Below are positions 29,346-50,909 of a stretch of DNA of 64,000 nucleotides, piece by piece. Each line of letters begins with the position of its first letter. Position 1 is the first letter of the stretch. The position numbers and the translations under genes are program-made. Source of the stretch: Dictyostelium discoideum (lineage: Eukaryota); the NCBI GenBank assembly GCA_000004695.1, contig CM000151.3:512001-576000 (forward strand), read 5' to 3'. The notes below the pieces were generated by a model, which made no database searches, was not told the origin of the DNA, and saw nothing but the letters and a program-made list of their open reading frames with translations.

Positions 29346-29446
29346 TGAAAGTTTTTTAAAAAAAATATAAATTTAAAACAACAATATTTAATTTTAATAA
29401 AAAATTTTCTTCACTAATTTTGATATTTCAAAACTACTAAATACCT

Positions 29447-30083
29447 ATGGGTAATTTAAAAAATATAAATTTAAAAGAGAAAGGAGTTGCAATTGTTGGT
29501 ATTGGATTTAGAATTCCTTCTGGTAATAATGAAAATTCAATTAGTTCACCAGATGATTTATTTAATAATTTAAAGAATGGTTTTGATGGTGTTAGTAGTA
29601 CATCAGAAAGATGGAGTGACAATTTTCATAAATTAGGTGAAATTAGTAGTCCAAATGCAGGTTTATTACCATTTAAAGAATGGAAATCATTCGACCCATT
29701 ATTTTTTGGTATTAATCCATCTGAAGCTCCATTAATCGATCCTCAACAAAGATTATTATTAAAATGTACATGGGAAGCATTAGAAGATGCATCTATTGAT
29801 CCAATTTCAATTCGTGGTACAAATACTTCAGTTTTCATTGGTTCTTCAACTATTGATTATTTACATACAAATAAACATCAAGACTCAGTTTTAAAGAATG
29901 CAATAGCACAATCAACCAGTGCGATTTCAAATAGAATTTCATACTGTTTCGATTTTAATGGTCCATCACTATCAATTGATACTGCATGTTCATCATCATT
30001 AAATGCAGTTTCTCAAGGTTATCATTCAATATTAAATGGTACTTCCAATATGTCAATTGTTGGTGGTGTAAATTTAATATTAG
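29447..30083 (+). CDS. PKS paralog 4 (full-length copy), exon 1 (KS N-terminal half)
   Basis: ATG 29447 '[28 protein letters not shown]...[15 protein letters not shown]...VGGVNLILG' followed by a GTAAGG donor at 30084. Confidence 0.85.
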
Positions 30084-30830
30084 GTAAGGATTATTATTTT
30101 TTTTTTAAAATTAAAAATACACTTATTAATTAAAATTTATTTTTATTAGATGTTGATATTATAAAAGCATATTCGATTTTAAGCATGTTAAGTAAAACAC
30201 ATGGTAAATGTAAAACATTTGATGAAAGTGGCGATGGTTTTACACGTGGTGAATGTGTCGGTGTTGTAGTTTTAAAGAATTTACAAGATGCAGTAAAAGA
30301 TGGTAATAGAATTTATTGTGTAATTAATGGTTCAAGTTCAAATGTTGATGGTAATGGTAATATGGATAAAGTTAACTTTTATTCACCATCAAAACAATCA
30401 CAATTTAATAATATTAATTCAGCATTTAAGTCAACAAATGACAAACTCTCGATTAATGATATTCAATATATCGAAGCACATGGTACCGGTACTAAAACAG
30501 GCGATCCAATTGAAACTGAAGCAATTTCAATGGCTTTTAAAAATAGAGATAAATCAACACCAATTCTAATTGGTTCAATTAAAAGTAATATTGGTCATTG
30601 TGAAGCTGGTTCAGGTGTTGCATCATTAATCAAATGTTGTTTAATGTTTAAATATCAATGCTTTTTACCAAATATTCATTTCAAAAATCCAAATCCATTA
30701 ATTAAATTCAATGAATGGAATTTAAAAGTTGTAACCTCACCAATTCCATTCAACAAAAGAAATAATGAAAAACCAGTTTCAATGATGATTAATAACTTTG
30801 GTGTAACAGGTTCAAATTGTTGTTTACTTA
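29468..30830 (+). other. Domain: ketosynthase (KS), spans intron 1
   Basis: Cys '[10 protein letters not shown]' in exon 1; His motifs 'EAHGTGTKTGDP' and 'NIGHCEAGSG' in exon 2. Confidence 0.8.
30084..30149 (+). other. Intron 1 of PKS paralog 4 (66 bp, phase 1)
   Basis: GTAAGG...TTATTAG; splicing gives '...LILG|DVDIIKAYSILSMLSKTHGKCKTFD'. Confidence 0.8.
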
Positions 30831-33800
30831 TTTCAGAATTTAAAAATAACAATAACTTTAAAGAGAATATTAATTTAGAATCTCAAAGTGTTAATGATAG
30901 AGTGTTAATACCATTCTCAGCAAATTCATCAAATTCATTAAATCAATACCAATCAAAATTTAAAAATATAATTAATAATCAATTCAATTTTATTGATTTT
31001 ACCGCAAATCAAATTTATTCAAAATCAAATTTTCTTTATCAAAGATCAGTTGTAATTGCAAGTAATTCAAATGAACTTTTTGAAAATATCTCAAATAAAA
31101 AACAAATTCAAACTAAAAATTCAATCATCTCAAATATGTCATTCAAAGGAAAGAACCCAATTACAATTTTTGTTTTTTCAGGTCAAGGATCACAATATCC
31201 TAAAATGGCTTTAGAATTATATAATAATGAAGTAATCTTTAAAAAGTCAATTGATTTAATCGATTCAAAATTATCAAAGTACTATGGTTTTTCAGTATGG
31301 GAGAAGGTAAAAACAATCAAAGATGATGACTTAACCTCAATACATGATCCAATTTTTGCCCAACCAGCACTATGTATGATTTCAGTATCACTATTTGAAT
31401 TATATTACCATTGGGGAGTAAATCCATCATTTATTCTTGGTCATAGTCTTGGTGAAATTTCAGCATCATATTGTTCTGGAATGATTGATTTAGATACATT
31501 CTGTTATACAGTTTATCAAAGATCAATAGCACAATCTAAAACAAATGGTTGTGGTAGAATGTTATCAATTAATATCAGTGATGAAGAATTTAAATCAATG
31601 TATTCTCAAAAGTATCCACAAATTGAAATCGCATGTTATAATTCACCTCAATCAATTGTTGTGGCAGGTAATGAATCAATATTAAATGAAATTTCAAAAG
31701 AATTAAAAGAAAAAGAAATTTTCACCACAATGTTAGGTTCATTATCATCATTCCATACAAGTAGCCAACAATGTACAAAAGATAGTATATTACAACTAAA
31801 CATTGAAAGTAATCAACCAAAAGTACCAATATTTTCAACAGTTACAACAAATTTATTTAATGAATCAAATCGATTTAATTCACAATATGTTTATGATAAT
31901 ATTATCAAACCAGTTAAATTCACACAAACAATTTCAAATATTTATAAACATATCGAATCAAATCAATTAAATAATGAAATTGTATTCATTGAAATTGCAC
32001 CACATCCAACATTATTATTTTATATTAAACAAATGGTACCATCAAGTTTAAATGAATCAGTTTCAGTTTATTCAGCACTTCATAAGAAAAAGAATGATGT
32101 CGAAGAGTTTCAACAAACCATTTCAAATTTATATTGTCAAAATGGATATAATATTAATTTTAAATGTCAATTTAATAATAAAAAATCAAATCAATCAATA
32201 AATTTACCACTTTACCAATGGGATGAAGAATTATATTTCACTCAAGCCCAAACTCTCGAACAACATAGAAAAGAAGGACCACCAATTGACCATCTTGGTA
32301 CATCAAACTCTTATAATTCACCATTTAATAATTCATATAGAACATCAATCGATATAAAGAATAAACCATTTCTATATCTTAAAGGCCATATGGTTAAAGG
32401 TAAATACTACTTCCCAGGTTGTGGTTATATTGATAATATTATTCAACTTTATAAAAATCAAGATATTTTTATTAGTTTTATTGAATTTAAAACACCATTA
32501 ATTTTAATTGAAGGTATCAATCAATATTTACAAACAAACATTCAACAAACTGGTAAAAGTGAATATCGTGCACAATTTCATTTCAAAGATCAAAAATCAA
32601 ATGAATGGATTCAATCATCAAATGCAAATTTCCAATTATTAGATCATGGTAATGATATACCACCAAAGTATAATATTAAAGAAATTATTGAAAACAAATG
32701 TAATTTAAGCAAATTAACAAAGAATGAACTTTATACACATATAAAATCAAAAACTGGTTTAAATTATACTGGAGTTTTTCAAGGTGTTACTGAATGTTAT
32801 ATAGGTGGTGATTGTACATTATCAGTTGTATCTTTAGAATCTCAAACAAACTCATTTTTAAATATACCAATATTAGATACTTGTTTACATGGAATGATAG
32901 GATTGTCAAATGATCAATGTCAAATTGTATTTGATAAAGCTATTGGATTTAAATATTATTCATCAAACATACCAGCAAATTTAAAAGATTATAAAGATAG
33001 TGTTTATGTTTATTCCCATTTAAAATCAAAAAGTGTTGATTCATTCTTTGGATCTATAATAGTAATGTTATCAGATGGTTCAGTTTTATATGAAATTGAA
33101 GAAGTTGTTTGTAAATCATTAATTCCAATCAAAGATTCACTTAAAATTGAGTATCCTAATGATGAATTATACAAAGTTCATTTACAATCAAAAGATTCTC
33201 CAATTCCAACACCATCATCATTCAAATCAATTATTTATGAAAATGATTTCTTCCATTCTGCACTTAATATTCCAGAAGATTTATTCAAATATATTTCAAC
33301 ATTATTTTATAAAGATATTATAAAAAGATGTCCAGAAATTAATATCAATAAAATTAATTCTCATAGTGTTAATGAAATTATTTCAAGTTTCAGTAAAATT
33401 TCAAAACACGAAAGATTATTTAGATTTGTATTTGAAACAATAAAAGAGAATGGTATTCTTAATAGTTTGGAAGAAAATGATGATGCTTATTTCGAATTTA
33501 ATGAAGTAATTATCAAATCGTCAAGAATTATTTCAAAATTATTATTCCCACTAGAAAGTGATAATGATAATGAAGATTTACCTCAATCATTATTTCAAAA
33601 TGGTTTAATGGATAAAATTTATAAATGCAGATATTTAAGAAAGAAGAATCAAATGATTTCACATGTTATTAAACATTCAATTAAAGAGATTATTAATAAT
33701 AATATTATAATTAGAATTTTAGAATTTGGAGGAGGTACTGCATCATTATCAGTTGAAGTTATTGAAGAAATAATTGCATTACTTCAAGAGAATCCAAATT

Positions 33801-36800
33801 ATCAAGTTGAAATCGAATATACATGGAGTGATATTTCACCTGCATTCATAGCAGATGCAAAGAATAAAATCAATAAAATCATTAATGATGCTGCTATAAC
33901 AAATGGATTTAATGTTATTTATCGTCCATTAAAAATTGATGAATCATTGATAGAAACTCAATCAATTAATCCATCATATTATGATTTCGTTATAATGTCA
34001 AATGTTCTTCATGTTGTTAAAAATATTAAACAAGCTGTAGAACAAATGTATCAATTGTTGACTCCAAATGGTCAATTACTATTTTTAGAGCCACCTTATA
34101 AATCAGTTCTAAATGATTCAATAGTTGGTTCATTTGAACAATGGTGGTCATTCACTGATACTGATATTAGAAAAGATAGATGTAGTATGTCTCAACAAAG
34201 TTGGTGTCAATTATTAAAGACATGTAATTTTAAAGACATTGCAATGTCTAAAGAATGCATCTTTGTTGGTATTGTAATACATGCACAAAAACCACCAATT
34301 TCTTTATTGAATTCTCAACCAAAACGTGATAATATAATTATATATGGTGGTGGTAATCCAATTTTTGTAGAAAACATCAAATTATATTCAAATTCAAAAA
34401 GTTTAATTCAAATTGAAACTATTCAAGAATTTAATCAATTATTAAGTCAATCAACAATAACAAACGATTCAATCATTTATTTCATAAAAACATTAGAAAC
34501 ATTATCATTGGATAATTTTAAACAAATAACTCTTGAATATATTGAAATCAATCGAAAATTATTACAAATCAATAGTTTATGTAAACATGTATTAATTGTT
34601 AGTGATTCAAGAAAAACTAACTATTTAGCATCATCAGTTGTTGGTGCAGCAAGATACTTTGATGAATTCCAACAATTGAAACTAAATACTTTAGATTTTG
34701 ATTATGATTCAACTCAAAATTATATAAATTCAAATAATAAAGATATGGTTCAATTCATTAATATCTTGACAGATTCCAAAACAAATGTTCATAAAGAAAT
34801 GATTATAATTAATAATAAAGTATATTATGAAATAGTTCAAAAAGAGAAAAATCTAAAATTAAAATACAATTCAGAATCTTTTGAAAATCAAAATAATTTA
34901 ATGTGTTCATTATCACCAAATTTAGAATATCAATTACAATCAAAACAAATTAAATTAAGAGATAATCAAGTTGAAGTTAAAACAATTGCAACTGGTATCA
35001 ATTATAAAGATTATTTAAATTTTAGTGGTTCAAATAGCAACGGTGATGACAATACAGGTTTACCACAATTTGGATATGAATTTTCAGGTATTATAACAAG
35101 AGTTGGTAATAATGTAAAAGATTATAAAGTTGGTGATAATGTATTTGGTTTATCAAATTCTTGTACATCATCTCACATTGTTACAAATTATAAAAAAATT
35201 CAAATAAAACCTTCAAACCTAAGTCATAACGAAGCATCATCAATTCCAATTGATTATTTAACATCATTTATGAGTTTATTTAATATTGGTAGTTTAAATA
35301 TTGAAGATAATGAATCAATTTTAATTCATTTAGGTAGTGATGGTTTTGGATTATCAACATTTGAAATATTAAAATGGAAAGGTTTTAATTCAAATTTATT
35401 CGTTACAGTAAATTCATATGAAACTAAACGATATCTTCAAGATAATTACGGTGATTTTATTACTGGAATTTATTCAAACACAGATAAAAGTTATGTTACA
35501 GAAATAAATAAAAAATTAATTAAATTAGGTTCAAAAAAGAAAGGAGTAGATTTAATATTAAATACATTACCAAGTGATTTTATGGATTCAAATTTCAAGC
35601 TATTAGCAAAGTATGGTAGAATAATTGATTTAACGTCAAATCATTTAAATCAAAGTGAATTTTTAAAAAATATCAATTTTAAATATAATCATGGTTACCA
35701 TAACTTTGAGTTATCATTAATTCAAAAAAATAAAATTCACAAATGTTTATATGAAATTTCAAATGCTTTTGAAAATGGAGAATTAAAAACCATTCCAATT
35801 AAAGAATTTACAAATTTAAATATTAAAGATGCCATCAAATACATTACCAACAATAAAATTGAAAAAATTACAGTTAGTCATGATCATGAAATTTATAGTG
35901 ATATTATTTATAGATCTTTAGATGAAAAAGAGTTTTCAATATTAAAATCAAATTATCAAATTAATTCAAATAATTTAGGTAAAAACATATTAGTCACAGG
36001 TCAATCAGGTATTATTTTAGAAATATTAAAATGGATCATTAAATATTCAAATATTAATACAATTGAAAATGTTATTATTCTTTCAAGATCATCATTAAAA
36101 TGGGAATTAGAATTATTAATTAACGAAACTAAACTATCAAATAATAATATTAAATTTCATTTCAAGAGTGTTGATATCGGTGATAGTGAACAAGTTGATA
36201 ATGCAATCAATGAAATATTAAATGAAAACCAACAAATTACAAATATTGATTCAATATACCATTTTGCATTTCAACAAATTACATGTAAAGTTCAAGAAAT
36301 CAATATGAAACATTTAGATATTTCACATGGAGCAAAATCAATGGGAGCAATTAATTTACATAATCAATCAATTAAACGTAATTGGAAATTAATTAATTTT
36401 GTTATGGCTTCATCTGCAATTTCATTAATAGGTTCAACTGATTTATGTACATATGTTTGTGCAAATGCATTATTAGATTCATTTTCAAAATACAGAGAAT
36501 CACTTGGATTACCATCAACTTGCATTTGCCTTGGTGCAATTGAATCAACTGGTTTCGTTTCAAAGAATGAATCAGTTTCAGTATTTTTAGACGGTGGTGG
36601 TTTCCATCCAACACCAATCAATCAAGTTTTAGGCCTTTTAGATTTACAAATTCAAAATGCTGGTAAATTCACAAATTCAATGCTTTCAAATTTCAAACCC
36701 TCAAAATTTAAAAATAATCAACAAACATCATTATTTTTAAAATTTGATTACTTGATGAATTTAAAAAACAATAGCGAAGAAACCAAAATAGAGAATACTG

Positions 36801-38308
36801 GAAATAAGAACATTGATGAATTATTCATTGAGAAAGTTTCAGAATTATTTTCAATGGATGAATCAAAGATAAATAAAAATCTTAGATTAATCGATTATGG
36901 TGCAGATTCACTAATAATAGTTCAATTAAAAAATTGGATAGATAAAGAAATTGGTATAAATTTAATAACAATTCAACAACTTCAAAACAATACAATTAGC
37001 ACTTCAATGAAAATGATATTAAATTCATTAATGAAAAATAATCAAAATATAGATGACAATAATAAAGACCTACCTTCAAATAGAATCGATTATTGGAAGA
37101 ATGAAATGAAATTTGAAGAGTCTATTAAACCAATATCAAATGAAATACAATCAAGGAATAATTCAGAAAAAATTATTTTATTAACCGGTACAACTGGTTT
37201 TTTAGGTGGTTTCTTATTATTCAATATGGTAAGATTAGATTCATGTAAATTAATTTATTGTTTAATTAGAAATAAAAGTAAATCAAATAATCCATTAGAT
37301 GAAATTATAAATAATTTAAAATATCATCAACTTTATGAAAAATTAAATCAATCACAAATTTCAAAGATTATACCAATTATTGGTGATTTATCAATGAATA
37401 AACTTGGTCTTTCAAATGATGATTATGAAACAATTTCAAAAAATGTAAATTTAATAATCAATCCAGGTGCAGATATTAATCAAAAATCAAGTTACCAAGA
37501 TTGTAAATTAGTAAATGTAAATGGAGTAAAAGAAATTATTAAATTATCATTATCATCATTAAAACAAAGGATACCAATTGTAAACTTTTCATCATTTTCA
37601 GTATTTTTCAATCAATCACTTGATAAGAATTTTGATGAATCAGTTTTACCATCAATTGATAATATTGATAATTTACCAACAGAATATATGAAGAGTAAAG
37701 TTGTTGGTGAATATATTTTATTGGAAGCTTCTAAAAAATATAATATACCATCAATTTTAATTAGACCACCAAGTATATTTTTAAATCCAGAAACAGGTAT
37801 TGGTCATATTAGTGACTTCTCTTTATTATCAATCCAATCATGTTATGAATTAGGTTATTATCCAAATCAATTTGAAAATGATTTTATTTTAATTAATACA
37901 ATTACATGGTTATCAAATAATATTACAAATATTATAATGAATGATAATTGTTGGACAGATTCAAAAATGAATATTTATAATGTACATGGTAAACAAATTC
38001 AATCAAGTTTAATAATTAAACCACTTGAAAAACATTTCAATTGTAAACATATCAATACTAATGATTGGATTGATATGGTAAATAATTCAAATAAAAAATC
38101 ATGTATTAAATTAAAATCATTCCATTCTTTGGATATAATTTTAAAAAGTGAAAACAATAGATATAAACCCAATGAAAATCAAAGCATATCATTATCAACC
38201 AAATCATTACTAGAATCAATGGGCTCATACAACACTGATCTTGAAATCACTGATAAAATGATTATTTCTCATATTAATCAAATTTTTAATTTAAATGAAA
38301 CAATTTAA
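30150..38308 (+). CDS. PKS paralog 4, exon 2: complete KS(C-term)-AT-DH-cMT-ER-KR-ACP-R megasynthase (about 2920 aa after splicing) with C-terminal NAD(P)-dependent thioester reductase
   Basis: Continuous 2707-aa ORF; all catalytic motifs are listed in the domain entries below; stop TAA at 38306-38308. Confidence 0.9.
31160..32135 (+). other. Domain: acyltransferase (AT)
   Basis: 'FVFSGQGSQYPKMA' and active-site 'GHSLGEISA' (Ser at ~31445-31447). Confidence 0.8.
32280..33130 (+). other. Domain: dehydratase (DH)
   Basis: 'IDHLG...' N-terminal region and 'LKGHMVKGKYYFPGCGY' H-x3-G-x4-P active-site motif. Confidence 0.65.
33600..34300 (+). other. Domain: C-methyltransferase (cMT)
   Basis: SAM motif I 'ILEFGGGTASLSVEV'; downstream 'YDFVIMSNVLHVV' motif II/III-like. 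Confidence 0.65.
34940..35885 (+). other. Domain: enoylreductase (ER, MDR superfamily), nucleotide motif atypical
   Basis: 'QVEVKTIATGINYKDY...GYEFSGIITRVGNNVKDYKVGDNVFGL' and 'ILIHLGSDGFGLSTFEILKW'; the glycine-rich motif reads G-S-D-G-F-G rather than the canonical G-x-G-x-x-G. Confidence 0.55.
35970..36575 (+). other. Domain: ketoreductase (KR)
   Basis: Rossmann 'ILVTGQSGIILEIL'; catalytic 'CTYVCANALLDSF' (Y-x3-N). Confidence 0.65.
36800..37040 (+). other. Domain: acyl carrier protein (ACP)
   Basis: 'LRLIDYGADSLIIVQLKNWI', phosphopantetheine Ser in 'GADSL' at ~36908-36910. Confidence 0.75.
37165..38305 (+). other. Domain: C-terminal thioester reductase (R, SDR-type)
   Basis: 'ILLTGTTGFLGGFLLFNM' (TGxxGxxG NAD(P)-binding) and 'PTEYMKSKVVGEY' (YxxxK catalytic pair). 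Confidence 0.75.
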
Positions 38309-38426
38309 TTAAAAAATAAAATTTTAAAATTTTAATAAATATAAATATAATTTTTAATTTATTTATTTTTTTTTATTATTACTATTATTATTATTATTAT
38401 TATTATTATTTTTTAATTAATTAATT

Positions 38427-39325
38427 TTAACCTCTTGAAATATCTCTACCGAAAACACTACTCTTTAACCAATCGAAAGAGACTAAAGCACGATTTCTAA
38501 CACTTAAAAGTTTAGTGAAATATACACTTCTCCAGAGGTAATAAGTGATATAACCTTCAGAGACAGTTGTTGAATGATCACCTTTGAATTCAGCTACAGC
38601 TTGATGATCACCAACATAAGCTAAAGTACCCATATGTTTATATTTAAATAATGGTTTCTCTTTGACGGCTTCCTCAAAGCTTTTATTTGAACCAGTGATT
38701 GAATTGAAAAGGTTTAATTTCTCTTGTTGTTTTTCTTTTTCCTCTTTATGTGCATCTGGATTCTCTCTCTTTTTAATGAGATCATTATTCATTTCCTCTG
38801 CCAATTGATTGAATAATCTGCCTAAATAACGACCTTGTTGAGAAGCAACTTGAGCAGTTTGAGCCAATGGTTTTGATGGATTAATTGAAGCATCACCAAT
38901 TGACCAAATTCCATCAGTACCAGCCACTCTGAAATAATCATCAACAACCAAACCTCTTCTATTGTTTTGAATATTTGGTCCGATCGATTGCATAATTTGA
39001 GTGGTAATCTTTCTTGGTGTATTACCGGTTGCCCATACTAATAAACCGTATGGATGAATTGATTCCTCTTTGGTTGTAGTATTCTTTACTGTAATCTCTT
39101 TCTCTCTAACTCCAACAACTGCTGTCTTTGTCCAAATCTTTGTATTGTTTGAACTTTGAAGACGTTTTTCAACATGATCAATAATCTTCTTATCAAAAAT
39201 TGTTAAAATATGTGGAAGTGCTTCAACTAATGTAACATTAATTCTCTTTGCTAATGGATATGTTTTTAATAAATCTGATTGAAGGAAATCATTTAATTCT
39301 GCTGTAAATTCAACACCAGATGGAC
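38427..39325 (-). CDS. NDH-2 NADH dehydrogenase, exon 3 (second GxGxxG Rossmann fold to C-terminus)
   Basis: Intron 39326..39454 is 129 bp, A/T-rich, with GTAAGT...TTTTAG boundaries. Splicing gives 'VVVGGG|PSGVEFTAEL...LVWATGN...IWSIGD...MGTLAYVGDHQAVAEF...YITYYLWRSVYFTKLLSVRNRALVSFDWLKSSVFGRDISRG*', colinear with Ndi1. Confidence 0.8.
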
Positions 39326-39398
39326 CTAAAATAAAAATAAAAAAATAAAAAATAAAAAATAAAAAAATTTGAAAATTAAAAATGATTAGGACAGCGAG

Positions 39399-39429
<31 letters not shown>

Positions 39430-39454
39430 GGGAAAAATATATAAATAAACTTAC

Positions 39455-39879
39455 CACCACCAACTACAACGAAATTTAATAAACGATCAATTTCTTTTTC
39501 AGGTTGACCAGGATAAGAAGCAGTTTCAAGACAATCAATAATTTTATCTCTAATGTTACGAGTATCATTAATTTCTTTTAAGAAACAAGCATTCTCTTTT
39601 ACACCTGGAATACCAAAGGTTTGATTATCGGCACCGACACCAACGATCAAATGATCATACTCTAATTCGAATTCTGAAACTTCACCTTTTACAGCACTAT
39701 TATCATAACATTTAACCTTTTTAGAAACTGGATCAACTGATAAACATTCTGCTTCATAAAAAGTTGCATCCTCTGCATCTGCTCTCTTACAATACTTTCT
39801 AATTGGTTCCATAATTGATCTAACTTCAACTGTACCTGTTGTACCACCAACTAATAATGGTGTAAATAAAAAGTAATTT
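39455..39879 (-). CDS. NDH-2 NADH dehydrogenase, exon 2
   Basis: The acceptor ...AAAAG|AAATTAC restores 'ISPR|[29 protein letters not shown]...LNFVVVGGG', matching yeast Ndi1 '[31 protein letters not shown]'; intron 39880..39956; exon ends at a GTAAGT donor at 39454. Confidence 0.8.
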
Positions 39880-39956
39880 CTTTTTTTTTTTTTTTAAATT
39901 TAAAATAAATTAGTAAATAAGATTAAAATAAAAATAAAATTAAATAATTTAATTAC

Positions 39957-40387
39957 CTTGGTGAAATGATTGTAACATCAAATAAATCAGTATGTAATTT
40001 TCTTAAGAAACATAATGAACCCCAACCAGTACCAAGAATGACAACTTTTGGTCTTTTCTTTCTTTCACTTTCTGGTAATCTAGTTCTAAATTTATCAGTG
40101 ACTGAATCGAAATCATCATTAACCACCATATCAATTATCCAAAAACCACCTAAACCTGCTACTGCTAATCCACCCCAAAATGCAAATTTATTCATTTTCT
40201 TTTTTGGTTCTTGTTCTTTTTGTTGTTGTTGTTGTTGATTTTGTTCATTATTATTACTATTATCAGTTGATGTCGAAAATCTTTGTATAAATTGTGTTTG
40301 ATTATTTTTACATGCGACAATACGATTTGTTGACACTGTTTTAATTAATTGATTTTTATTAACTTTTGAAAATGCTCTTGAAATCAT
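39957..40387 (-). CDS. Type II (alternative, rotenone-insensitive) NADH:ubiquinone oxidoreductase, NDH-2 (yeast Ndi1/Nde1 family), exon 1
   Basis: 'MISRAFSKVNK...KKRPKVVILGTGWGSLCFLRKLHTDLFDVTIISPR' contains the first dinucleotide-binding GxGxxG motif; GTAATT donor at 39956. Confidence 0.8.
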
Positions 40388-40680
40388 TTTTTAATTTATT
40401 TATTTTATTAATTTATTTATTTTATTAATTTGTTTATTTTTTATTTATTTATTTATTTTTGGAAAAAAAAAAAAAAATTAAAAGGTTTTAATTTTTATAA
40501 ATCTTTGAAAAAAAAAAAAAAAAAATTGAAAAATAAAAATAGAAAAATAAAAAAAAAGTTATTATTATAACTTTATAATTAGTTGTAGTTTGTGAAGTGA
40601 GAAAAAAAAATGAAGAAAAAAAAAAAAAAAAAAATTCAAAAAAAAAATAAAAAAAATATAATACCACAAAAAAAAAAAAA

Positions 40681-40740
40681 AAAACAGTAGGACCTGCATA
40701 GGTCGGGGCAAATTTTACGTATTTGCCACCATACTGTTAG
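40681..40740. other. Imperfect palindrome / stem-loop in the divergent intergenic region
   Basis: 'acagtagg acctgcataggtcggg GCAAAT tttacgt ATTTGC caccatactgt': inner 7-bp stem plus outer 'acagtagg/ccatactgt' stem; relatively GC-rich for intergenic DNA. Confidence 0.3.
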
Positions 40741-41199
40741 ATTTTTATTTTTTTTTTTTTATTTTTTTTTTTTTTTTTTCGGAAATGAAATGGCTTTCGT
40801 TTTTGATCACCTGGTATGAAAAAAATAAAAATTATGCACCCAACCCAAAAACAAAAAAAAAAAAAAAAAAAATTAAAAAAAATATTAAAAAAAAAATTTT
40901 TGAAATCAAATATGATATTTTCCCATATTAATTAATTTGGGAAATAATATTTTTTTTATTTATCAATTTTATTATATTTTTATTTTATTTTATTTTATAT
41001 TTTATATTATATTATTTACAAAAATAGAATTTTTATTTTTTATTTTTTATTTTTTTTAATTCTGCAATTATTTTCTAATTAAAAAAAAATGAAAGGGTGA
41101 TTACTATATAAATAAAAACAAAACAAAAAATAAAAGGGCTCTACTTTTTTTGTTAATTTAATTTAATTTTTTTATTTTATTTTTTTTTTTTTTTTTTTT

Positions 41200-41238
<39 letters not shown>

Positions 41239-41299
41239 AAAACGAATTTTTTTTTTTTTATTTTAATTTTTATTTTTCTGAAATAATTGTAATAATAAT

Positions 41300-41863
41300 A
41301 TGTTAAAGTTTTGTAGTAAGACTAAAATACTATTTGGTAGTTTGAATGGTGGAATCATTTCAACATCCATTTTTAAAAGAGATTTTTCAAAAATTCCAAT
41401 TAGAACTTCAATTTTTAATAATCAAACCAGCATTCCAAAAAGAATGATGATGATAAAAATTGAAGGTGAAGGAACTGTAAAAAAAGAATTAACAAATGAA
41501 GAGAAACAAAAGATTAAAGAGAAAAAGAAAAAAGAACAAATTGAAAGAAATGCATTAAAAAAACAGAATCGTGCTGCAATGATTGAAAGATCAAAAGAAC
41601 TTAAAAAGACTAAAAAGGAAAAAGATATTCAATCAAATGAAAAGAAATCTCAAAATACCAAAAATAAAGATAAAGATGATGACGATGATTACTATGATGA
41701 AGATGACGAAGATGATGAAGATGAACATGAAAAAAAAGGCGAAAGTGATGAAATTATAGATTTTGCTGAAGGTGATGGAGAAACATACTTTCCAAAAAAA
41801 GAAAAAGTTAAAGTAAAACCAAATAAAAAGAAACCAAACAATGATAAAGGTTTTCGTAGATGA
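41300..41863 (+). CDS. Hypothetical K/E-rich protein (187 aa) with basic, presequence-like N-terminus and acidic C-terminal tail
   Basis: ORF 'MLKFCSKTKILFGSLNGGIISTSIFKRDFSKIPIRT...KEKKKKEQIERNALKKQNRAAMIERSKELKK...DDDDDYYDEDDEDDEDEHE...'; no catalytic motif recognised. Confidence 0.45.
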   Translation: MLKFCSKTKILFGSLNGGIISTSIFKRDFSKIPIRTSIFNNQTSIPKRMMMIKIEGEGTVKKELTNEEKQKIKEKKKKEQIERNALKKQNRAAMIERSKELKKTKKEKDIQSNEKKSQNTKNKDKDDDDDYYDEDDEDDEDEHEKKGESDEIIDFAEGDGETYFPKKEKVKVKPNKKKPNNDKGFRR

Positions 41864-42126
41864 TTTTAATATACAAATGTAAAAAAAAATAAAAAATAAA
41901 AAATAAAAAATAAAAAATAAAAAATAAAAAATAAAATAATAATAAAAAAAAAAAAGATATTATAATTTAAATTATTATTTATTTTTTTATTTTTTTAAAT
42001 CTGATCAATTTGTTTGGGTTGAAAAAAATAAAAAAAATTAATTTAAAAAAAAAAAAATGGAAAAAATTGAAAAAAAATAAAATCTAAAAAAAAAAGATAC
42101 AGACAAAATGGTATCAGTTTTTTTTT

Positions 42127-42155
42127 TTTGTTTTGTTTTGTTTTGTTTTGTTTTG

Positions 42156-42185
<30 letters not shown>
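42127..42185. repeat. (TTTTG)n simple repeat, about 12 units
   Basis: Direct reading: ttttgttttgttttg... Confidence 0.9.
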
Positions 42186-42186
<1 letters not shown>

Positions 42187-42532
42187 TTTATTTTATTTTG
42201 TTTTTTTTTTTTTATATTTTTATATTTTTATATTTTTATTTATATATTTTATTATAATAAAATTCTCTCCAACCAAATAAATATCTTTGAGTGGGTGGGG
42301 GTGTTAATCAAAACTCCACGTTTCTTTGGTGATTTAAAAATCATAGCATCCTTTTTGGAGGAGTGGTTAAATATAAACTGTATTTTAAAAAAAAAAAAAA
42401 AGAAATGAAAATAATATAAATATTTAAAAAGTGCTATATTAAACCTTGGTTATAATAATAAGATTTTTGTGTATTCACAATTTTGTGAAACTTTTTTTTT
42501 AATTTTTTTTTTTTCCTTTTTTTTTTTCTTTT

Positions 42533-42564
<32 letters not shown>

Positions 42565-42756
42565 TATTTTATTTTTTTATTTTTTTTTCAGTCCCAAAAA
42601 ATCAAAAAAAAAAAAAAAAAAATAAAAAAAAAAAGAGTGTTTTTTAATTTATTTTATTTATTTTTATTTATTTCATTATTTTTGTATTGTAGAGTTTATA
42701 TCTAAACAATAAAATAATTTTGTAAAATTTATATATCTTTACTTTGTTCGAAAATC

Positions 42757-42798
<42 letters not shown>

Positions 42799-43495
42799 CC
42801 ACACTAATGCAAATAGATTTTAACAATACATTTACATACACACATATATAAATAAATATATATATTTTTTTATTTTTTTTTTATTCTCAACTTTCAAATT
42901 TAACAATTTGTTGAATCATCAAATTAGGAGAACTTGTGTTAACACTCTTCACCACACTCACACACTTAAATATAAATATACAAATATCTTTTTTTATTTT
43001 TTTTTATTTTTTTTATTATTTTTATTATTTTTATTCTATTTTCTAATTTATATAAATAAATATATATTACTTTCACAATTAAAATTTAACACCATCGAAA
43101 TAAATACAATAAAAAAAAATAAAAAAATAAAAAATAAAATAAAATAAAAATAAAATTAAAATAAAACAATTTATTAATACATTCACACACAAAAAATAAA
43201 ACAAACAAAAAACGGTACACCCACCCTCACATTTTTTTTTTTTTTTATTTTCTTTTTTTGGATTGTTTTTTTTTTTAATTTTTTTTTTTTTTATTTAAAT
43301 AAAAAAATTTAATTACTCTTTTGGTTTAATTTTTTATAAAAAAAAAAAAAAAAAAAAAAAAAACTTTTTTTAGACAAAATAAAAAATAAAAAAATAAAAA
43401 AATAAAAAATAAAATAAAAAATAAAATAAAACATAAAATAAAACTTAAAATCCAAAAAACAAACAAACAAATAAATAAAAAAATAAATAAAAGAA

Positions 43496-44230
43496 ATGTC
43501 AAAATTAGAAAGTGAATTAGCAAAATTAATATTAGAGAATAATAAAGCCAAGGGAATAGACAGTAGTAATAGTCTTGGCCCACCAAGTATTACATTTGGA
43601 GATAAAAGTAATAGTTTTATTGGTACCACTAAAACCAATATAAATAGTATAGGCAATAACAGTAGTGGTAGTAGTAGTAAAAGTTTAAATGTACCAAGTA
43701 TTGTCGTTAGTTGTGATAATGAAAATTCTAATAGTAACTTCAATAAAGGTTGTTGCTTTAATGTAAATAATAATAATAATAATAATAGTAATCTATTCAA
43801 CGATAAGAAACAGCAGCAACAACAACAAGGACCATCACCATCACCATCACCACCATCACCATCATCATTATCAACATCACCAAATTGTAAAAGTAATTTT
43901 AGTAGCTGTAGTGATAGTGGTAGTAATGATAAAGAGGCATTAATATATCAAATGAGACAAAAAAAGATTAAATCATTAGAGAGAAGAGAACCATCAAATG
44001 TACTAATAATAGAGAATATAAGTGAAAAGAATGCACAATTAGTTCAACTATTGGTAGAAGATCAAAATTTAAATTTCTCATTCTCTGTTCAACTTATTAG
44101 ATATCTATCACATTTTAAATCTTTGATTCTAGTTTTTTCACATAGAAATGAGGCGGAATTATGTAAATTATTAGTTTCAAGACAAGATTCAATTAAACTT
44201 GATGTTGATACAATACTTTATTTTGGAAAG
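43496..44230 (+). CDS. rcnA: Calcipressin / RCAN (regulator of calcineurin) homolog, exon 1 (N-terminal RRM-like domain)
   Basis: '...NVLIIENISEKNAQLVQLLVEDQNLNFSFSVQLIRYLSHFKSLILVFSHRNEAELCKLLVSRQDSIKLDVDTILYFGK' resembles the RCAN N-terminal RRM-like domain ending in the conserved 'LYF(A/G)' element; GTAAAT donor at 44231 (phase 0). Confidence 0.7.
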
Positions 44231-44407
<177 letters not shown>

Positions 44408-44884
44408 GAAATTTCAATCGGTTCAATTGGAAAATATCAATTAACAACACCATTTGCAACAAGACAGCATTTAATATCACCACCATTAAGTCCCCCAAAT
44501 GAATGGAGTGCACCAGGTGATGGTATGGAACATCCTCCAACTGATGTTGACCCATTTGCAGTTGTCACAAGAGTTGTAATCGATGAAAATGATGATGAGA
44601 ATTTCAGTTTTGGTGGTAATAATAAAAATGATAATAATGATAATGATAATAATAATAAAAATAAAAATAATAATAATAACAATGGTGGTTGTAATGATAG
44701 TGAAAGTGAAACACCCTCATCTTCATTAGTGGGGTTTTCAACAAATAGTAGAAATAGTAGTAATAATAGTGAAAGTACTTTTGTTAATAGTTTAGATCCT
44801 GAACAATTATCTGACCGATTAAGAAAAGTAATTTATCAAGATAATACTTCAAATGGTTTCCCTTCAATTACTTTAGAGTTTTGT

Positions 44885-44890
<6 letters not shown>
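44408..44890 (+). CDS. rcnA: Calcipressin / RCAN homolog, exon 2 (FLISPPxSPP calcineurin-regulatory motif and acidic C-terminus)
   Basis: 'EISIGSIGKYQLTTPFATRQHLISPPLSPPNEWSAPGDG...' matches the RCAN signature 'FLISPPxSPPxxW'; stop TAA at 44888-44890. Confidence 0.75.
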
Positions 44891-44920
<30 letters not shown>

Positions 44921-45799
44921 TTATCAATCCCTTAATAATATTACAAAAATTACAATTATCATCCAAACGAACAAAAAGGGATTATTCTTTTATTTTTATA
45001 AATACTCAAGTACTCTCTGTCTCTATCTCTCTCCATTGTCAATCTTTTTTTTTATTTTTTTTTTATTTTTATTTTTTTATTTAATTAAATCCACAAAGAA
45101 ATAAAAAAAAAAAAAAAAAACATTAATTGTATATTAAAAATAAATTTAAACATTTTTATATTTTTTTTGTACTATATATTTTTATTTTCTTTATTATTTT
45201 TTATTTTTTCCTGACTACTATCTTTTTCTTTTTCCTCTTCTTCTTCTTCTTCTTCTTCCATCCTTGGCCAAACTTTTGGTAATTTAATATTACTTAATGC
45301 TTAATCTTCAAATAAATTTGAAACAAATTAATTTTTTTTTTTTTTTTTTCTAAGTTGGATGGATTTGTTTCATAGCATGGCTTTCTAGGTTAAATTATTT
45401 ATTATCATTATCTTTTTTTTTTTTTTCTTTTAATAATGATTTCATATTTTCTGTTAACAAAAAAAAAAAAAAAAAAAAACTAGAGATGCCTGACATTTAA
45501 CTTAATTTAAATTAACCTGTATTTAGATTTGCTGTTAGTTTAACTTTGCATGCACAACTAAAAATAAACCTTTTTAAATATTTGTAATAACAAAAAAAAA
45601 AAAATTGAAAATTATGGGTTTGTTGTTTTTTTTATTTTTTTTTTTAGAAATAAAAAAGAAAAGTGGATGACTCTTGATTAAAAAAAAAATTCAATGTACT
45701 TCCATTAATATTTCAAATTAATTATTTTATTTTTTTACCTTTTTTTTTCTTATTTTAATAATTTTTAAAAAAACTATTAATAAATAATTGTTTTTAACT

Positions 45800-47822
45800 T
45801 TATTTTTCAAATCTTTTCATTTTGGCTAATCTTTTACTTAATTGTTTTTCCAAATTTCTTTTATATAATAAAAATGAGACAGCGCCAATAACTGAAAGAA
45901 ATACTACACCACCAACTACAGAGCCAGCAATAATGGCTGTTTTTGATGAATATTCCTCTTGATTTCCACAATTTGTTGGATTAAATTTAACCAAAACTTG
46001 AAAGTCAGGATCTATCAAACACTCCTTTGTGCAATGGGGTAATTGTAAAGCAGTGATTATTGAGTCCTTTGTTTTATTTATTACTAATGTATTTAAGAAT
46101 GTACTTCTACCATCTGATAATGCACGTGATATAATTCTACCAATTAATTGTTTTCCATTTTTTTGAATTTTAATATAATTTGAATATTGATCTTCTTGAT
46201 TATCAATATCAATTTTATTCTTATCAATTATATTACAATTATTATCATATTGAATTTCATCATTATCATCATCACCATCATAACCATTGTTATTATCTGA
46301 AACTGATGATTCAAATGTTAATTGAAGTGAATTTAATGATGTTTGATAATGATAGTTTTTAATTGAAATTGAAATTTTAATTGAATTTTCATCCAATGTA
46401 AAATTAATTCCTGCAAAATTTGAATTTCTTTTAATTTTAACTTCTTCTAATGTTGCAGTTATTAAACAATCTTTATTATTATCTGATAATATGGTTTGAG
46501 TGAAAATTAGAGCTGGATTACCTAGAGTTGATTTTTTTGTTAAATTCCAATTACCTTTTAATAAATGATTTTTAATAATAAGATTATTTTGATCAATTTC
46601 TAATAATGATAAAATATTAATTTGATAATTTGTATCTTGATTAATAATTGTTGTATCACCATTATCAGAGATTGTATTATTTGATTTTGAAGGTGGTAAA
46701 ATACTACTACAATCATATCCTTGGAATCCATTTTTACAAATACAAATTGAATTTATACAATCACCATTATTTATTGATGTGCATCTATTTATACAATTAT
46801 TATTATTATTGTTATTGTTGTTGTTGTTATTTGAAATTGGTAAATATTTATAAATATTTGTAAAATTGTATGTAGTACCATCAATGATTATTGAAATTGA
46901 TACAATTCCTTTACCAGATTGAGCTATACAATTAATCATTTCAAATGAAGTTGAATGTAATGAACATTGTTTACCACCAATATAAACTTCAAATTTTGAA
47001 GAAGAGTAACCAAAAAACCCATACAATGTTGTGTTTCCACCATTTTCAGTTGTTTCACCAATTGCTGATATTGAAATGTTGGCATATTCACATTGTACTC
47101 CATAATAGTTGTCAGAGCAAATACAACTATCAATAAAACAATATCCATTTAAACCACAATCAATAGGACAATCAGTTGGTGTTATTTCACTACAGTCATT
47201 ATTTGAATTTGGATTATTACAATCACAAATACCAGTATTATAATCACATTCACCTTCTGGGTAATTACATTCATTTGGACATTGAGGAATATTTGTAATT
47301 TTATCAATACTTAATTCATCAACATCAAATATTACTACCCTATCATCAATTATCATATATATATGATATGGACCTCCACCGCTACCACCACTACCACCAC
47401 CACTACCACCAGAAATTGCAAACCGACCAATAATTGAATGGAATGTAGTACTAATAATATCAATTTTATAATTATTGATATATATAAAAACTAGTGATGA
47501 ATTGTATGTAAAGTATTGTCCTTTAATTTCAATTTGATCTTTTGAAGTTAAAATTGAAATTGGGTTTGGTTTTGCTAATTGATACCAAGTTGATAAATAA
47601 AATAAATTATTTACTAAACTTTTTGTAAAATTAAATTCTAAAATTTTCTTTGAATAACCAAATGAATAATCTATTTCATAAATTAAATATTTTTCATTTA
47701 CAATATTATATTCTGAATCTCTAGTATAAAATTCAATATCATTAGTTTGAATTGATTCCCATTCAAACCCCAAATCACTTCCAACCAAAAATAATTTATT
47801 TGATTCAAATATAATATTTGGA
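45800..47822 (-). CDS. Type I transmembrane surface protein, last (large) exon: Cys-rich EGF-like repeats, IPT/TIG-like domain, Gly/Ser linker, TM helix and short basic cytoplasmic tail
   Basis: 'CPNECNYPEGECDYNTGICDCN...CPIDCGLNGYCFIDSCICSDNYYGVQCEY' (EGF/laminin-EGF-like); 'KFEVYIGGKQCSLHSTSFEMINCIAQSGKGIVSISIIIDG' (TIG-like); 'TAIIAGSVVGGVVFLSVIGAVSFLLYKRNLEK' (TM + stop-transfer); acceptor ...AATAG at 47823-47824. Confidence 0.7.
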
Positions 47823-47913
47823 ATTAAAGTTTCTATTATTATTATTATTACAAGTGTTAGTTTTTATAAATAAATAAATAATTAAATTATTAATAATAGT
47901 AAGTAAAATTTAC

Positions 47914-47995
47914 TGCAAGTATTATAAATGATCGGAACATCAGATACAGTAGAGCCAATAATATTGTTTTTAAAGCTGATATCCTTGAAATAACC
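47914..47995 (-). CDS. Same surface-protein gene, small internal exon (82 bp)
   Basis: TTTTAG|gttatttcaagg...acttgca|GTAAAT; keeps the frame open from the upstream exon into the large last exon ('...CYFKDISFKNNIIGSTVSDVPIIYNTCK|TLIPNIIFESNKLFLVGSDLGFEWES'). Confidence 0.5.
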
Positions 47996-48073
47996 TAAAA
48001 TTATATTATTTTTATTTTTAATTATTTTATTTTATTATTTTTATTTTATTTATTGATTAAAAAATAAACTTAC

Positions 48074-48189
48074 ATGTAAAACAAGAGGGTAATGATGTTT
48101 TATCTATTAGAGTACTATACATAATAAGATATCTTAAATTGCAATATGATTTATCTAGAGTACCTGTTATTGGATTGTTTGAAACATCT
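48074..48189 (-). CDS. Same surface-protein gene, small internal exon (116 bp)
   Basis: TTTTAG|agatgtttcaaacaatcc...ttttacat|GTAAGT; encodes 'DVSNNPITGTLDKSYCNLRYLIMYSTLIDKTSLPSCFT'. Confidence 0.5.
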
Positions 48190-48657
48190 CTAAAATTTTT
48201 CATTAATTGTTTTTTTTTAATTAATTATATTTTCAATTTAAAAGATTGGTATTTTTTATTAATTTGAAATTTTTAGTTTTATAAAATGGAATATTTACAG
48301 TTTTTTAATATGAGAATATCTTTTACTCCACAACGGTAATGGGGATTCAATTCCATTATCTGGAAAATATCTTTTTTATTTTTAAAAAAACAAAAAAAAA
48401 AAAAAAACAAAGGGTTTGGTAAGATTATATTCAATGGTATAAAAATAATAGTAACCTTTTTTTAAATTTACTTACATAGATTCATAAAAAATTTGTGAAA
48501 AATCTGGTAAATTTAGAAAATGGCTCGATATTTTCCTTAATAATTGTAATAATAAAAAATAAAATATAAAAAAAAAAAATAAAAAAAACAAAAAAGAAAA
48601 TTTAGATTAAAATTTTGTATATATACTTATATGTATATATATAGTATAAATCAATTA

Positions 48658-48891
48658 TTACATTATAGAATTTGAAGTATTTGATAAAATTGGATATGGT
48701 TTAAATGGTATAGTATTATTAAAATTGAAAAAAGGGTTATCTCCAATATTTAAATAATTCAATTTATTCAAGTGAGAAATGTTAACTATACTATTTGCAG
48801 TTAATTGGTAAAGGCTAAATTCTAAATTTTCTAGTGAATCGGATGGGAAAATAGGGAAAAAAAAATCTTTGGCACTTTTTCCAGTCACCAC
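48658..48891 (-). CDS. Same surface-protein gene, candidate LRR-like exon(s) (boundaries not resolved)
   Basis: Open frame 'SDSLENLEFSLYQLTANSIVNISHLNKLNYLNIGDNPFFNFNNTIPFKPYP' with LxxLxLxxN-type periodicity; flanked by T-rich intron-like sequence. Confidence 0.3.
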   Translation of the reverse strand: MVTGKSAKDFFFPIFPSDSLENLEFSLYQLTANSIVNISHLNKLNYLNIGDNPFFNFNNTIPFKPYPILSNTSNSIM

Positions 48892-49080
48892 ACTTTTTTT
48901 TTGTTTTTTTTTTTTAATGTTAGAAACTAAATTAAAATTGATTTAGATAATGTTACATTATAATTTACTTACATTTTTTTAATTTTATTGTGTGTTGAAA
49001 AGTTTAAAAAAGAATTTAAATCTGGAGAATTTAATTCGTAGGTTCTAAAACATAGTAGTTTTTTTTTTTTGAATGAATAA

Positions 49081-49113
<33 letters not shown>

Positions 49114-49688
49114 TGTTCAAAAATTGTATTAGTAATTTTAAAATTATTCAAGTTTTTTATTTTCAAATTAATACCTACATTGAAGGAATTGATACATTGG
49201 TAAGATCTGGTATTTTCTGAATATTAATCAATGTTCTTTTATATAAAAGATTTAAATCTGTTTAGTTAATATAAATAAAAATAAAATATAATAAAAACAA
49301 TTAAAATAAAAACGACGAAAACTATTAATAGTTACAAAATACCATTATCTGTATTGGGATTTAAATAATAATTATTTAAAATTTCCAAACTTTCACATTC
49401 AATTTTTCTGACTTTTAAGCATAATAAAAAAAAAAGATTTGTTTGTAATATTATTATTATAAAGATTATTACCATATAAGTCTTTTATTATAAATATAAA
49501 TAATTACACAGATGAAAAGTTTGCAAGAGAAGTGATCTTAAAAGTGAAACCACAACTATAATAATCTATAATAAGAGAAATTTTACTTGAAACACTTGGT
49601 AAAATTAAATTATTTATGTTATCAACATTGAATAAAGTACTTTGAAATTTTTTTTTTTTTTTTTAAATTAAATTGATTAGTAAACAAT

Positions 49689-49723
<35 letters not shown>

Positions 49724-50135
49724 ACTCACATTTCTGTATTATTTTTTCCTTTAAAAGATGTTATATCTGGATCAACAGAAGAGTTATCGATTTTTATTTT
49801 TTTTAGATTATAAAAACAACTGATGTGATTTGAAGTAAGTGGTGGTGAGAGACTTGGACTCTGAAAATTTCTGATTTATTTTATTTTTTTAATTTTGATA
49901 TAATCAGGATTAGATTTAATTAAATTAAATTTTTTTTTTTTTTTATTACTTACAGAGATATTAAAAAACCCCCATCACATTTAATAGAGGTCGAATTACA
50001 AAATAAAAAACTCGAGTTACCATCATTTGATACTACACTTGACATTAAATTAAAGGTTTCATACAAACTATGAATACAATCATCTTGAAATATATGAAAG
50101 ATTTATTTTTTTTTTTTTTTTTTTAGTTATTACCA

Positions 50136-50166
<31 letters not shown>

Positions 50167-50168
50167 AC

Positions 50169-50277
50169 ATTCAGTTTCTATTAATCCATTAATTTGAATT
50201 GAATTTCCAAATCTTTGATTTAAAATTGATAAAAATAATATAATAAAATATAATTGAAATGACTTTTTCATTTTCAT
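50169..50277 (-). CDS. Same surface-protein gene, exon 1 with cleavable signal peptide
   Basis: 'MKMKKSFQLYFIILFLSILNQRFGNSIQINGLIETE' followed by a GTAAGT donor at 50168; several further 60-120-bp exons separated by ~80-120-bp T-rich introns evidently lie between 48200 and 50160. Confidence 0.5.
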
Positions 50278-50909
50278 TTTTTTTTTTTGCATTAATTCAA
50301 AAAAATTAAAAAAAGATTGATTTTGAATAAAATAAAAAAAAATATTTTATTCAAAACCAATCATTTTTTTAATTTTTTTAATTTTTTTTTTTTTTTTCAA
50401 AATCATCTTTGGATATTTTCAAATTTTATTATTTTCAAATAAAATTGATCAGAATAAATATCTGAAAAAAAAATTTTTTTTTAATTTTAATTTTAATTTT
50501 TTTAGATTTGAAATAATTAGATTTCAGAATTTAATAATATTTTTTTTTTTTAATTCGGGATTGAATTTAAAAATAAACATTATTTTGGTAATATTTTTTT
50601 TTAATTTTAAAGGAAATATTTTAATTTTTATTTTTATTTTTTTTTTAATAATTTATTTTTATTAAACGAATGTTGAAGGTTTCCACAATTCCTTCAACAA
50701 TAAATTTATTATTTTTTTTGGAAATTTTTAAAAATTTGTTTTTTTTTTATTTTTTTTTTTATTTTTTTTTTTTTTTTTTTACTTTGGATGTTTTAGAGGT
50801 TTTGAAATTGGAGATAAAGTCTTTCTTTTTTTTCTTCTCCTTTTAATTTTTTATTATATTTTTTTTTTTTTTTTGAAAAAACAAATAAAAAAAAATAAAC
50901 AAATAAAAA

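Follow-up and report, generated by a model that had tools for sequence, protein, structure and literature searches.

A predicted 13-exon gene for a leucine-rich repeat membrane glycoprotein of the ComC family in Dictyostelium discoideum

The 64,000-nucleotide stretch of Dictyostelium discoideum DNA analyzed here (the window; assembly GCA_000004695.1, contig CM000151.3, positions 512,001 to 576,000, with all coordinates below counted from its first letter) carries on the minus strand, at 50277..45800, what is very probably a single intact gene of 13 exons, encoding a type I membrane glycoprotein of 1101 amino acids (aa) that belongs to the dictyostelid ComC family. An earlier note had proposed one multi-exon gene for a surface protein at this place, and the proposal holds: the 13 exons join into a 3306-nt coding sequence with zero internal stops, the reading frame is kept across 12 GT-AG junctions, and the product has leucine-rich repeat (LRR), EGF-like, and IPT/TIG modules. 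From the N- to the C-terminus, the domain order is signal peptide, LRR solenoid, two predicted β-sandwiches, EGF, IPT/TIG, EGF, ComC supersandwich, transmembrane (TM) helix, and basic tail. The locus is not new, since a near-identical public assembly already has a gene call at the same coordinates. What the comparison adds is knowledge at the level of annotation, which leaves current understanding unchanged: an uncharacterized AX4 locus is placed firmly in a large, dictyostelid-restricted family in which a developmental phenotype is known for comC alone, and its exon model, supported by comparison with relatives, probably puts right one splice junction of the public annotation.

Exon model

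The window has a G+C content of 23%, and automatic enumeration of GT-AG chains in this AT-rich DNA gave either none or spurious ones; it was replaced by motif-anchored assembly of the exon chain, which was checked against orthologous proteins (three, found with the last exon as the query) and their tblastn pieces. The resulting exons are as follows.

50169..50277, minus strand: exon 1, 109 nt, start codon at 50277, ends in phase 1
49954..50083, minus strand: exon 2, 130 nt, Cys-bearing N-terminal LRR cap (C39, C65, C72), placed by tblastn to orthologues
48074..49870, minus strand: LRR solenoid, exons 3-11 with introns 3-10, aa ~81-400, about 14 repeats
49870-49730, minus strand: exon 3, 141 nt
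49639-49508, minus strand: exon 4, 132 nt
49407-49336, minus strand: exon 5, 72 nt
49235-49179, minus strand: exon 6, 57 nt
49044-48973, minus strand: exon 7, 72 nt
48892-48662, minus strand: exon 8, 231 nt
48535-48476, minus strand: exon 9, 60 nt
48370-48299, minus strand: exon 10, 72 nt
48189-48074, minus strand: exon 11, 116 nt
47914..47994, minus strand: exon 12, 81 nt, phase 1 to 1, C-terminal LRR cap, ends with C424
45800..47832, minus strand: exon 13, 2033 nt including the stop codon

The start codon of exon 1 is also the start in the public gene call and in P0001, the annotated orthologue of the closest lineage, and the signal-peptide exon had been given exactly, at 50277..50169, in the earlier note. 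Three further exons had been mapped there, of which exon 11 needs no change; exon 12 starts at 47994 rather than 47995, and exon 13 at 47832 rather than 47822. All 12 introns run from GT to AG, with lengths of 79-134 nt and an A+T content of 84-95%. Exons of 60-120 bp with GTAAGT donors had been described; the real range of exons 1-12, 57-231 nt, is somewhat wider, and GTAAGT occurs in five of the 12 introns, the other seven having GTAAAT (twice) or GTGAGT, GTAATT, GTAACT, GTAGGT, and GTAATA (once each). It had been correctly remarked, too, that the track of open reading frames (ORFs) holds fragments only: upstream of a 662-aa ORF, the six-frame ORFs measure 19-94 aa.

Domain organization and family membership

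The modules of the encoded protein beyond the LRR region lie, apart from the signal peptide, in exon 13.

50277-50206, minus strand: signal peptide MKMKKSFQLYFIILFLSILNQRFG, aa 1-24, in exon 1
47830-47591, minus strand: predicted β-sandwich 1, aa 426-505, in exon 13
47572-47306, minus strand: predicted β-sandwich 2, aa 512-600, in exon 13, carrying a G/S insertion
47413-47369, minus strand: G/S run SGGSGGGSGGSGGGP, aa 565-579, inside β-sandwich 2, upstream of the EGF modules
47281-47090, minus strand: EGF-like modules, aa 609-672, in exon 13
47083-46835, minus strand: IPT/TIG, aa 675-757, in exon 13
46834-46796, minus strand: poly-N run, in exon 13
46795-46709, minus strand: further EGF-like module, aa 771-799, in exon 13
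46684-45992, minus strand: ComC supersandwich, aa 808-1038, in exon 13 (Pfam ComC_SSD)
45940-45863, minus strand: TM helix, aa 1056-1081, in exon 13
45862-45803, minus strand: basic tail KRNLEKQLSKRLAKMKRFEK, 20 aa, invariant, in exon 13

The supersandwich is matched by the Pfam model ComC_SSD (PF22933) with 182.7 bits (E 9.9e-54, cut-off 24 bits), residues 808-1038 covering profile positions 2-222 of 222. Cys-rich EGF-like repeats, an IPT/TIG-like fold, and a single TM helix had been noticed in the last exon, and all are present, the TIG, EGF_TEN, and EGF_Teneurin matches of the window protein each lying below the Pfam threshold; TIG is above threshold in the orthologues (33-44 bits). The Cys pattern is conserved, hydropathy has a single peak at aa 1058-1076, and all 19 N-x-S/T sequons fall in the ectodomain. 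The supposed G/S linker by the TM helix has to be given up, for the G/S run is located in the second β-sandwich. It is a length-variable, lineage-specific low-complexity loop insertion rather than a linker, because it is longer in a divergent isolate and absent in Dictyostelium citrinum and Dictyostelium firmibasis.

In the N-terminal part, residues 31-430 align, in the profile of the orthologue group, to the LRR_ComC (PF24141) regions of the paralogues (99.7% probability, E 3e-25). The LRR motif is degenerate in the orthologue group, with only 17-21 bits for LRR_8. An AlphaFold2 (AF2) model was made of the D. citrinum orthologue, which is 76% identical to the window protein; a 4-sequence alignment proved unusable, with a predicted local distance difference test score (pLDDT) of 41, and a 30-sequence family alignment was used instead, giving a pLDDT of 76.5. 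In this model, LRR strands are spaced ~20-24 residues apart between residues 104 and 381, and all-β modules with pLDDT 70-90 occupy the β-sandwich region. Foldseek matches of the model include plexin/MET IPT, Tie2, and BRI1-type LRRs, a fold match to GLMP being seen as well, and the family profile finds in the PDB plant LRR receptor ectodomains at E 3e-25, along with MET/plexin IPT and teneurin EGF.

When 1.84 billion cluster representatives were searched with the profile, 1036 relatives came up, of which 238 reach E<=1e-30; many, with lengths of ~1000-1100 aa, match end to end, and all the named ones are dictyostelid. The AX4 relatives found are DDB_G0270708, DDB_G0280511, and DDB_G0290835, and the Pfam set of the paralogues consists of LRR_ComC, Beta-sand_ComC_1st and Beta-sand_ComC_2nd, EGF, TIG, and ComC_SSD. 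In a full-length hhalign comparison, residues 3-1083 align with residues 1-1057 of DDB_G0270708 over 991 columns (E 2.7e-89), colinearly and with the β-sandwich region included. The window protein shares with the ComC family (PF24141, PF24142/PF24143, PF22933) the order of modules from the signal peptide to the TM helix and short tail, as well as the length of ~1000-1100 aa. It differs from the paralogues, with which rather than with comC proper it was compared, in being only 27-30% identical to them, in being too diverged to match the LRR and β-sandwich Pfam models that fit them, and in having 12 introns, whereas DDB_G0280511 has 7 and the D. citrinum paralogue 8. A word-index homolog search with the N-terminal 564 aa gave 0 matches though orthologues exist; this reflects low-complexity words and is not evidence of absence.

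Exon-intron architecture of the LRR region

The only unusual feature of the gene is the way its repeats are distributed over exons. Introns 2-10, nine in a row, are all in phase 2 and split the aliphatic codons L, I, V, L, I, I, M, I, and L, the split residues standing in the AF2 model at strand position 1 or 2 of successive LRR β-strands (126/127, 170/171, 194/195, 213/214, 237/238, 314/315, 334/335, and 358/359). Each of exons 3-10 has a length divisible by 3 and encodes one, two, or three repeats. A similar gene structure exists in the glycoprotein-hormone receptor genes LHCGR, FSHR, and TSHR, in which one LRR of ~24 residues is encoded by one exon of ~72 nt and the introns are all in phase 2, making symmetric cassettes; these receptors are from an unrelated lineage and family, and here the pattern occurs in an intron-poor genome. 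With its 12 introns, the window gene has some six times as many as is typical of group-4 dictyostelids, which have roughly 2 per gene (1.96 in D. giganteum, PMC13487327).

Eight of the intron positions are common to the D. citrinum paralogue and/or DDB_G0280511, despite only 27-30% identity; in columns of the family alignment these are 75 (phase 1), 129, 185, 240, 296, 430, and 485 (phase 2), and ~570 (phase 1). The phase-1 intron after exon 1 is found in the paralogues P0004 and P0158, and the phase-2 intron after exon 2 in P0158. Four introns are private to the orthologue group of the window gene, and one intron that both paralogues have is missing here. Because intron positions and phases are common to distant paralogues, the ancestor of the ComC family was already intron-rich with repeat-periodic introns, and the window paralogue has lost the fewest. 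The one-LRR-per-exon layout is an old trait of the family, not the sign of a new kind of gene, and with its uniform phase it records the way in which a repeat array came to be assembled in a genome that is otherwise poor in introns. At the DNA level, the small LRR exons bear no sign of having been duplicated in tandem recently, as no exon pair rises above shuffles except exons 6 and 9 (z 3.2).

Conservation and selection

The ComC-family gene is conserved across four lineages and is under purifying selection. All 13 exons recur in the annotated orthologues of D. citrinum and D. firmibasis, in the same phases and with matching sizes (72, 57, 72, 231-234, 60-63, 72, 116 nt, etc.); the annotated orthologue of the closest lineage, a divergent isolate of the D. 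discoideum clade (L001), agrees in exon sizes and phases as well, apart from the shortened exons 9-11 described below. Compared with L001, identity is 94.8% in exons and 88.5% in introns; the exons are for the most part free of gaps, those that do occur being mostly multiples of 3, whereas introns have indels of any length from 1 to 81 nt. Compared with D. citrinum, the values are 82.9% for exons and 74.1% for introns. The ratio of non-synonymous to synonymous substitution rates (dN/dS, Nei-Gojobori) is 0.22, 0.28, and 0.39 against three lineages and <1 in every segment, including the micro-exon LRR region alone (0.28-0.37), and the TM helix and tail have 0 non-synonymous changes relative to the closest lineage.

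The protein is 91-93% identical to that of the divergent isolate, itself labeled D. discoideum and probably one of the tropical isolates described in PMC12745789. Fast evolution of the gene was considered as an explanation and rejected: the whole locus is only 88-90% identical at the DNA level to the assembly of that isolate, and unlinked paralogues differ by 5-8%. The figure of 91-93% reflects genome-wide divergence of that isolate.

The same comparisons bear on the question of whether this is one gene at all. It is hardly credible that only the last long exon is real and that the small ORFs between 48200 and 50160 represent separate genes, decayed remnants, or products of chance in AT-rich DNA, even if the short ORFs upstream of the 662-aa ORF invite such a reading. 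It could also draw on the closest-lineage orthologue, in which exon 11 has a 2-nt gap and the annotated model leaves out 18 residues, and on an exact look-up of the 1101-aa model, made together with two neighboring ORFs, which found no match in the protein collection and hence no exact AX4 protein. Against it stand the canonical GT-AG junctions that keep the frame in 12 of 12 cases, exon sizes and phases identical in D. citrinum and D. firmibasis, and micro-exons that are ungapped and have a dN/dS well below 1 between introns full of indels. Moreover, intron positions are common to the distant paralogues, the encoded region is predicted to fold as one continuous LRR solenoid, and the public gene call covers the same start and stop. 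A single gene is therefore retained.

The exon 11 gap in the orthologue deserves a separate description. In L001 11795-12218, which corresponds to exons 9-11, the DNA alignment has a 2-nt gap in exon 11, and in P0001 these exons measure 48, 44, and 90 nt, as opposed to 60, 72, and 116 nt, leaving out the 18 residues KRYSHIKKLDVSNNPITG. The gap is either a real frameshift accompanied by compensating splice choices or a homopolymer error of long reads.

Counterevidence and the disputed intron 5

Several points weigh against the assignment of the window gene as a 13-exon ComC-family receptor gene. On the side of the protein, the LRR_ComC model and the two Beta-sand_ComC models of Pfam give no match to the window protein at E<=1, and a single-sequence phmmer search against the PDB gives no significant match; because of these misses, the LRR assignment is drawn from profile-profile and fold evidence, largely by way of the D. 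citrinum orthologue. The β-sandwich region, when aligned alone, reaches a probability of only 70% (E 4e-5). Function is proposed entirely by analogy with ComC. On the side of the gene, the splice junctions are predicted from comparative data only, and at least one of them is disputed.

This junction is that of intron 5. A gene with identical start and end is called in GCA_054883475.1 (L006 149-4618), with a product of 1106 aa versus 1101 aa here, and exactly 1106 aa result if intron 5 is placed differently, so that exon 5 ends at 49343 and exon 6 starts at 49257. The acceptor AG of this alternative intron is not conserved in other lineages, whereas that of the 1101-aa model is, so that the public model is probably mis-spliced at the junction. 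The 1101-aa model is favored, too, by the lengths of 72 and 57 nt that exons 5 and 6 have in all orthologue models, and by the series of phase-2 introns, which the alternative would break.

The 167-bp substitution patch

Over 22 kb (50425..28426), the window is 99.65% identical to GCA_054883475.1, and 31 of the 35 substitutions sit within 167 bp at 49316..49482 on the minus strand. This assembly belongs to the set of PMC12745789, which includes the laboratory strain AX2-214, and is probably that strain. Exon 5, which encodes one LRR, lies wholly inside the patch, together with the 3′ part of intron 4 and 20 nt at the start of intron 5; the patch is free of indels, and seven of its eight exonic changes are non-synonymous. 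Outside it, the gene has 0 substitutions relative to the near-identical assembly, the other differences being two 4-nt indels in intron homopolymers. At almost all patch sites, L006 matches the more distant lineage L001, and because of this agreement with an outgroup lineage, it is the window that carries the derived state. A donor of the patch was sought in the window and the fetched loci, and only the self-match was found. Gene conversion from an unlinked paralogue, clustered mutation, and a base-calling error in the reference are the options for its origin.

A more far-reaching interpretation would make the cassette-like LRR exons a substrate for exon-level diversification of the receptor, the patch being a repeat swap by conversion or targeted mutation and frame-preserving exon skipping providing isoforms that differ in the number of repeats. 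This is conceivable in principle and quite improbable.

Comparison with Tgr proteins and possible function

Kinship with the tgr/lag-type proteins of adhesion and allorecognition, which the earlier note had suggested from the architecture, fails on architecture, gene pairing, and evolutionary rate. Tgr proteins are TM proteins composed of IPT/Ig-like E-set repeats, often encoded in head-to-head pairs and extremely polymorphic (bioRxiv 10.1101/2025.10.22.684067; PMC12745789). That the window protein is of this type, a polymorphic IPT/Ig-repeat surface protein that discriminates kin through heterophilic binding to a paired partner, is extremely improbable. The two have in common that TgrB1 and TgrC1 are likewise type I surface glycoproteins with an IPT/TIG-type β-sandwich and that their family is largely confined to dictyostelids, and the window protein is indeed a surface protein that crosses the membrane once and carries one or more IPT/TIG modules. 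By their published description, however, TgrB1 and TgrC1 are set apart in consisting of IPT/Ig E-set repeats and a TM segment without LRR, EGF, or ComC supersandwich, whereas the window protein has an LRR solenoid, EGF modules, and the supersandwich and is colinear with a ComC-family protein over 991 columns. While tgr genes lie in head-to-head pairs at a hypervariable locus, the window gene is single and syntenic, with DOT1 (divergent) and calcipressin (convergent) as neighbors instead of a head-to-head partner. Its dN/dS of 0.22-0.39 denotes purifying selection, and it is free of substitutions outside the 167-bp patch relative to the one other genome of D. discoideum level that was compared. 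A tempting but wrong link to Tgr allorecognition is thereby removed, and membership of the ComC family is kept.

As to what a ComC-family protein of this kind might do, homology with comC is the guide. According to PMC2873529, the comC mutant aggregates aberrantly, and PMC4931340 describes comC as a developmentally essential, group-4-restricted gene with a signal peptide, a TM segment, and EGF domains. The window protein, after cleavage of the signal peptide, would sit in the plasma membrane, with the LRR horseshoe as the membrane-distal tip and putative ligand-binding surface and the sandwich, EGF, TIG, and supersandwich modules as a stalk. Because it has no enzymatic or adaptor domain, signaling or adhesion would proceed through a partner that binds to the conserved TM-plus-tail segment. 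By analogy with comC, the protein is probably a receptor for cell-cell communication or adhesion that would act during aggregative development, and the locus is thus a concrete knockout candidate for the study of cell-cell signaling in aggregative multicellularity. Genetically, comC, the founding gene of the family, has reportedly been placed in a pathway with lagC (tgrC1) and lagD, a point that would favor the Tgr-type reading; literature searches on comC with lagC or lagD, and on rcnA, yielded nothing usable.

The same ComC-family receptor might instead sense non-self, such as bacteria, prey, or pathogen molecules, in the manner of plant receptor-like proteins (RLPs) or Toll/TLR receptors, with a short tail and a co-receptor. 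In the PDB, what the family profile matches best are receptors of plants, namely immune and peptide LRR receptors (RXEG1, FLS2, MIK2, and PEPR1, E down to 3e-25), and, as in plant RLPs such as RXEG1 and TMM, the cytoplasmic tail lacks a catalytic domain and is not long enough to signal by itself. LRR solenoids match one another whatever their function, however, and decorin, LINGO-1, FLRT2, and FSHR score almost as well; the resemblance to animal and plant LRR receptors is at the level of repeat and fold, with no orthology shown. Unlike Toll/TLR, LINGO-1, LRIG1, FLRT, and plant RLPs taken together, the window protein is without a TIR or kinase domain, and none of them has a counterpart of its stalk, in which two ComC sandwiches are combined with EGF-TIG-EGF and a supersandwich. 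In addition, comC, the only characterized member of the family, has a developmental phenotype, and the LRR dN/dS of 0.28-0.37 is unlike the positive selection typical of pathogen-facing LRRs. Given this purifying selection on the LRRs, a non-self role is unlikely, and the role in cell-cell communication or adhesion is preferred.

Neighboring genes

The position of the gene next to a rapidly evolving array of polyketide synthase (PKS) genes had been regarded as noteworthy, a view that the gene order does not bear out. It runs protein kinase, DOT1, ComC-family gene, calcipressin, small ORF, NDH2, and PKS, so that three genes or ORFs lie between, and the order from the ComC-family gene to PKS is kept in the divergent D. 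discoideum-clade isolate, the near-identical D. discoideum assembly, and D. firmibasis. The NDH2-like ORF is, outside its own intron, 100% identical to AX4 XP_001733038/EAL71630; together with the near-identity to GCA_054883475.1, this makes the window AX4 or a laboratory lineage very close to it. The neighboring features are as follows.

24-4313, 8222-15091, 19700-26599, 27405-28421, and 30185-38308, plus strand: tandem array of highly reducing PKS ORFs
38430-39812, minus strand: NDH2-like ORF
43496-45240, plus strand: calcipressin-family gene, convergent with the ComC-family gene, named from orthologous gene calls
51064-56601, plus strand: ORF of 1845 aa that combines a DOT1 histone-methyltransferase domain (aa 1233-1433) with long poly-N/Q tracts and a block of highly charged E/K/R repeats
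56653-57633, minus strand: C-terminal part of a protein kinase gene
60771-63098, plus strand: dynamin-family GTPase ORF

In the PKS array, 27405-28421 looks like a fragment, with KAsynt_C_assoc and part of an acyltransferase (AT) domain. The 3′ end of a single PKS is visible in L001, and it is 93-94% identical to three non-syntenic copies of the window, which suggests recent duplication or homogenization within the array. The DOT1 ORF is divergent from the ComC-family gene, across an intergenic region of ~790 bp, and its gene probably has extra exons, because the orthologue gene calls are longer (1887-1973 aa). In D. citrinum (L002 14772-21397), extra genes, including one for a terpene synthase (PF19086), stand between the ComC-family gene and calcipressin; they are absent at this position in the window, L001, and L004 and represent a local rearrangement or insertion in the D. 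citrinum lineage.

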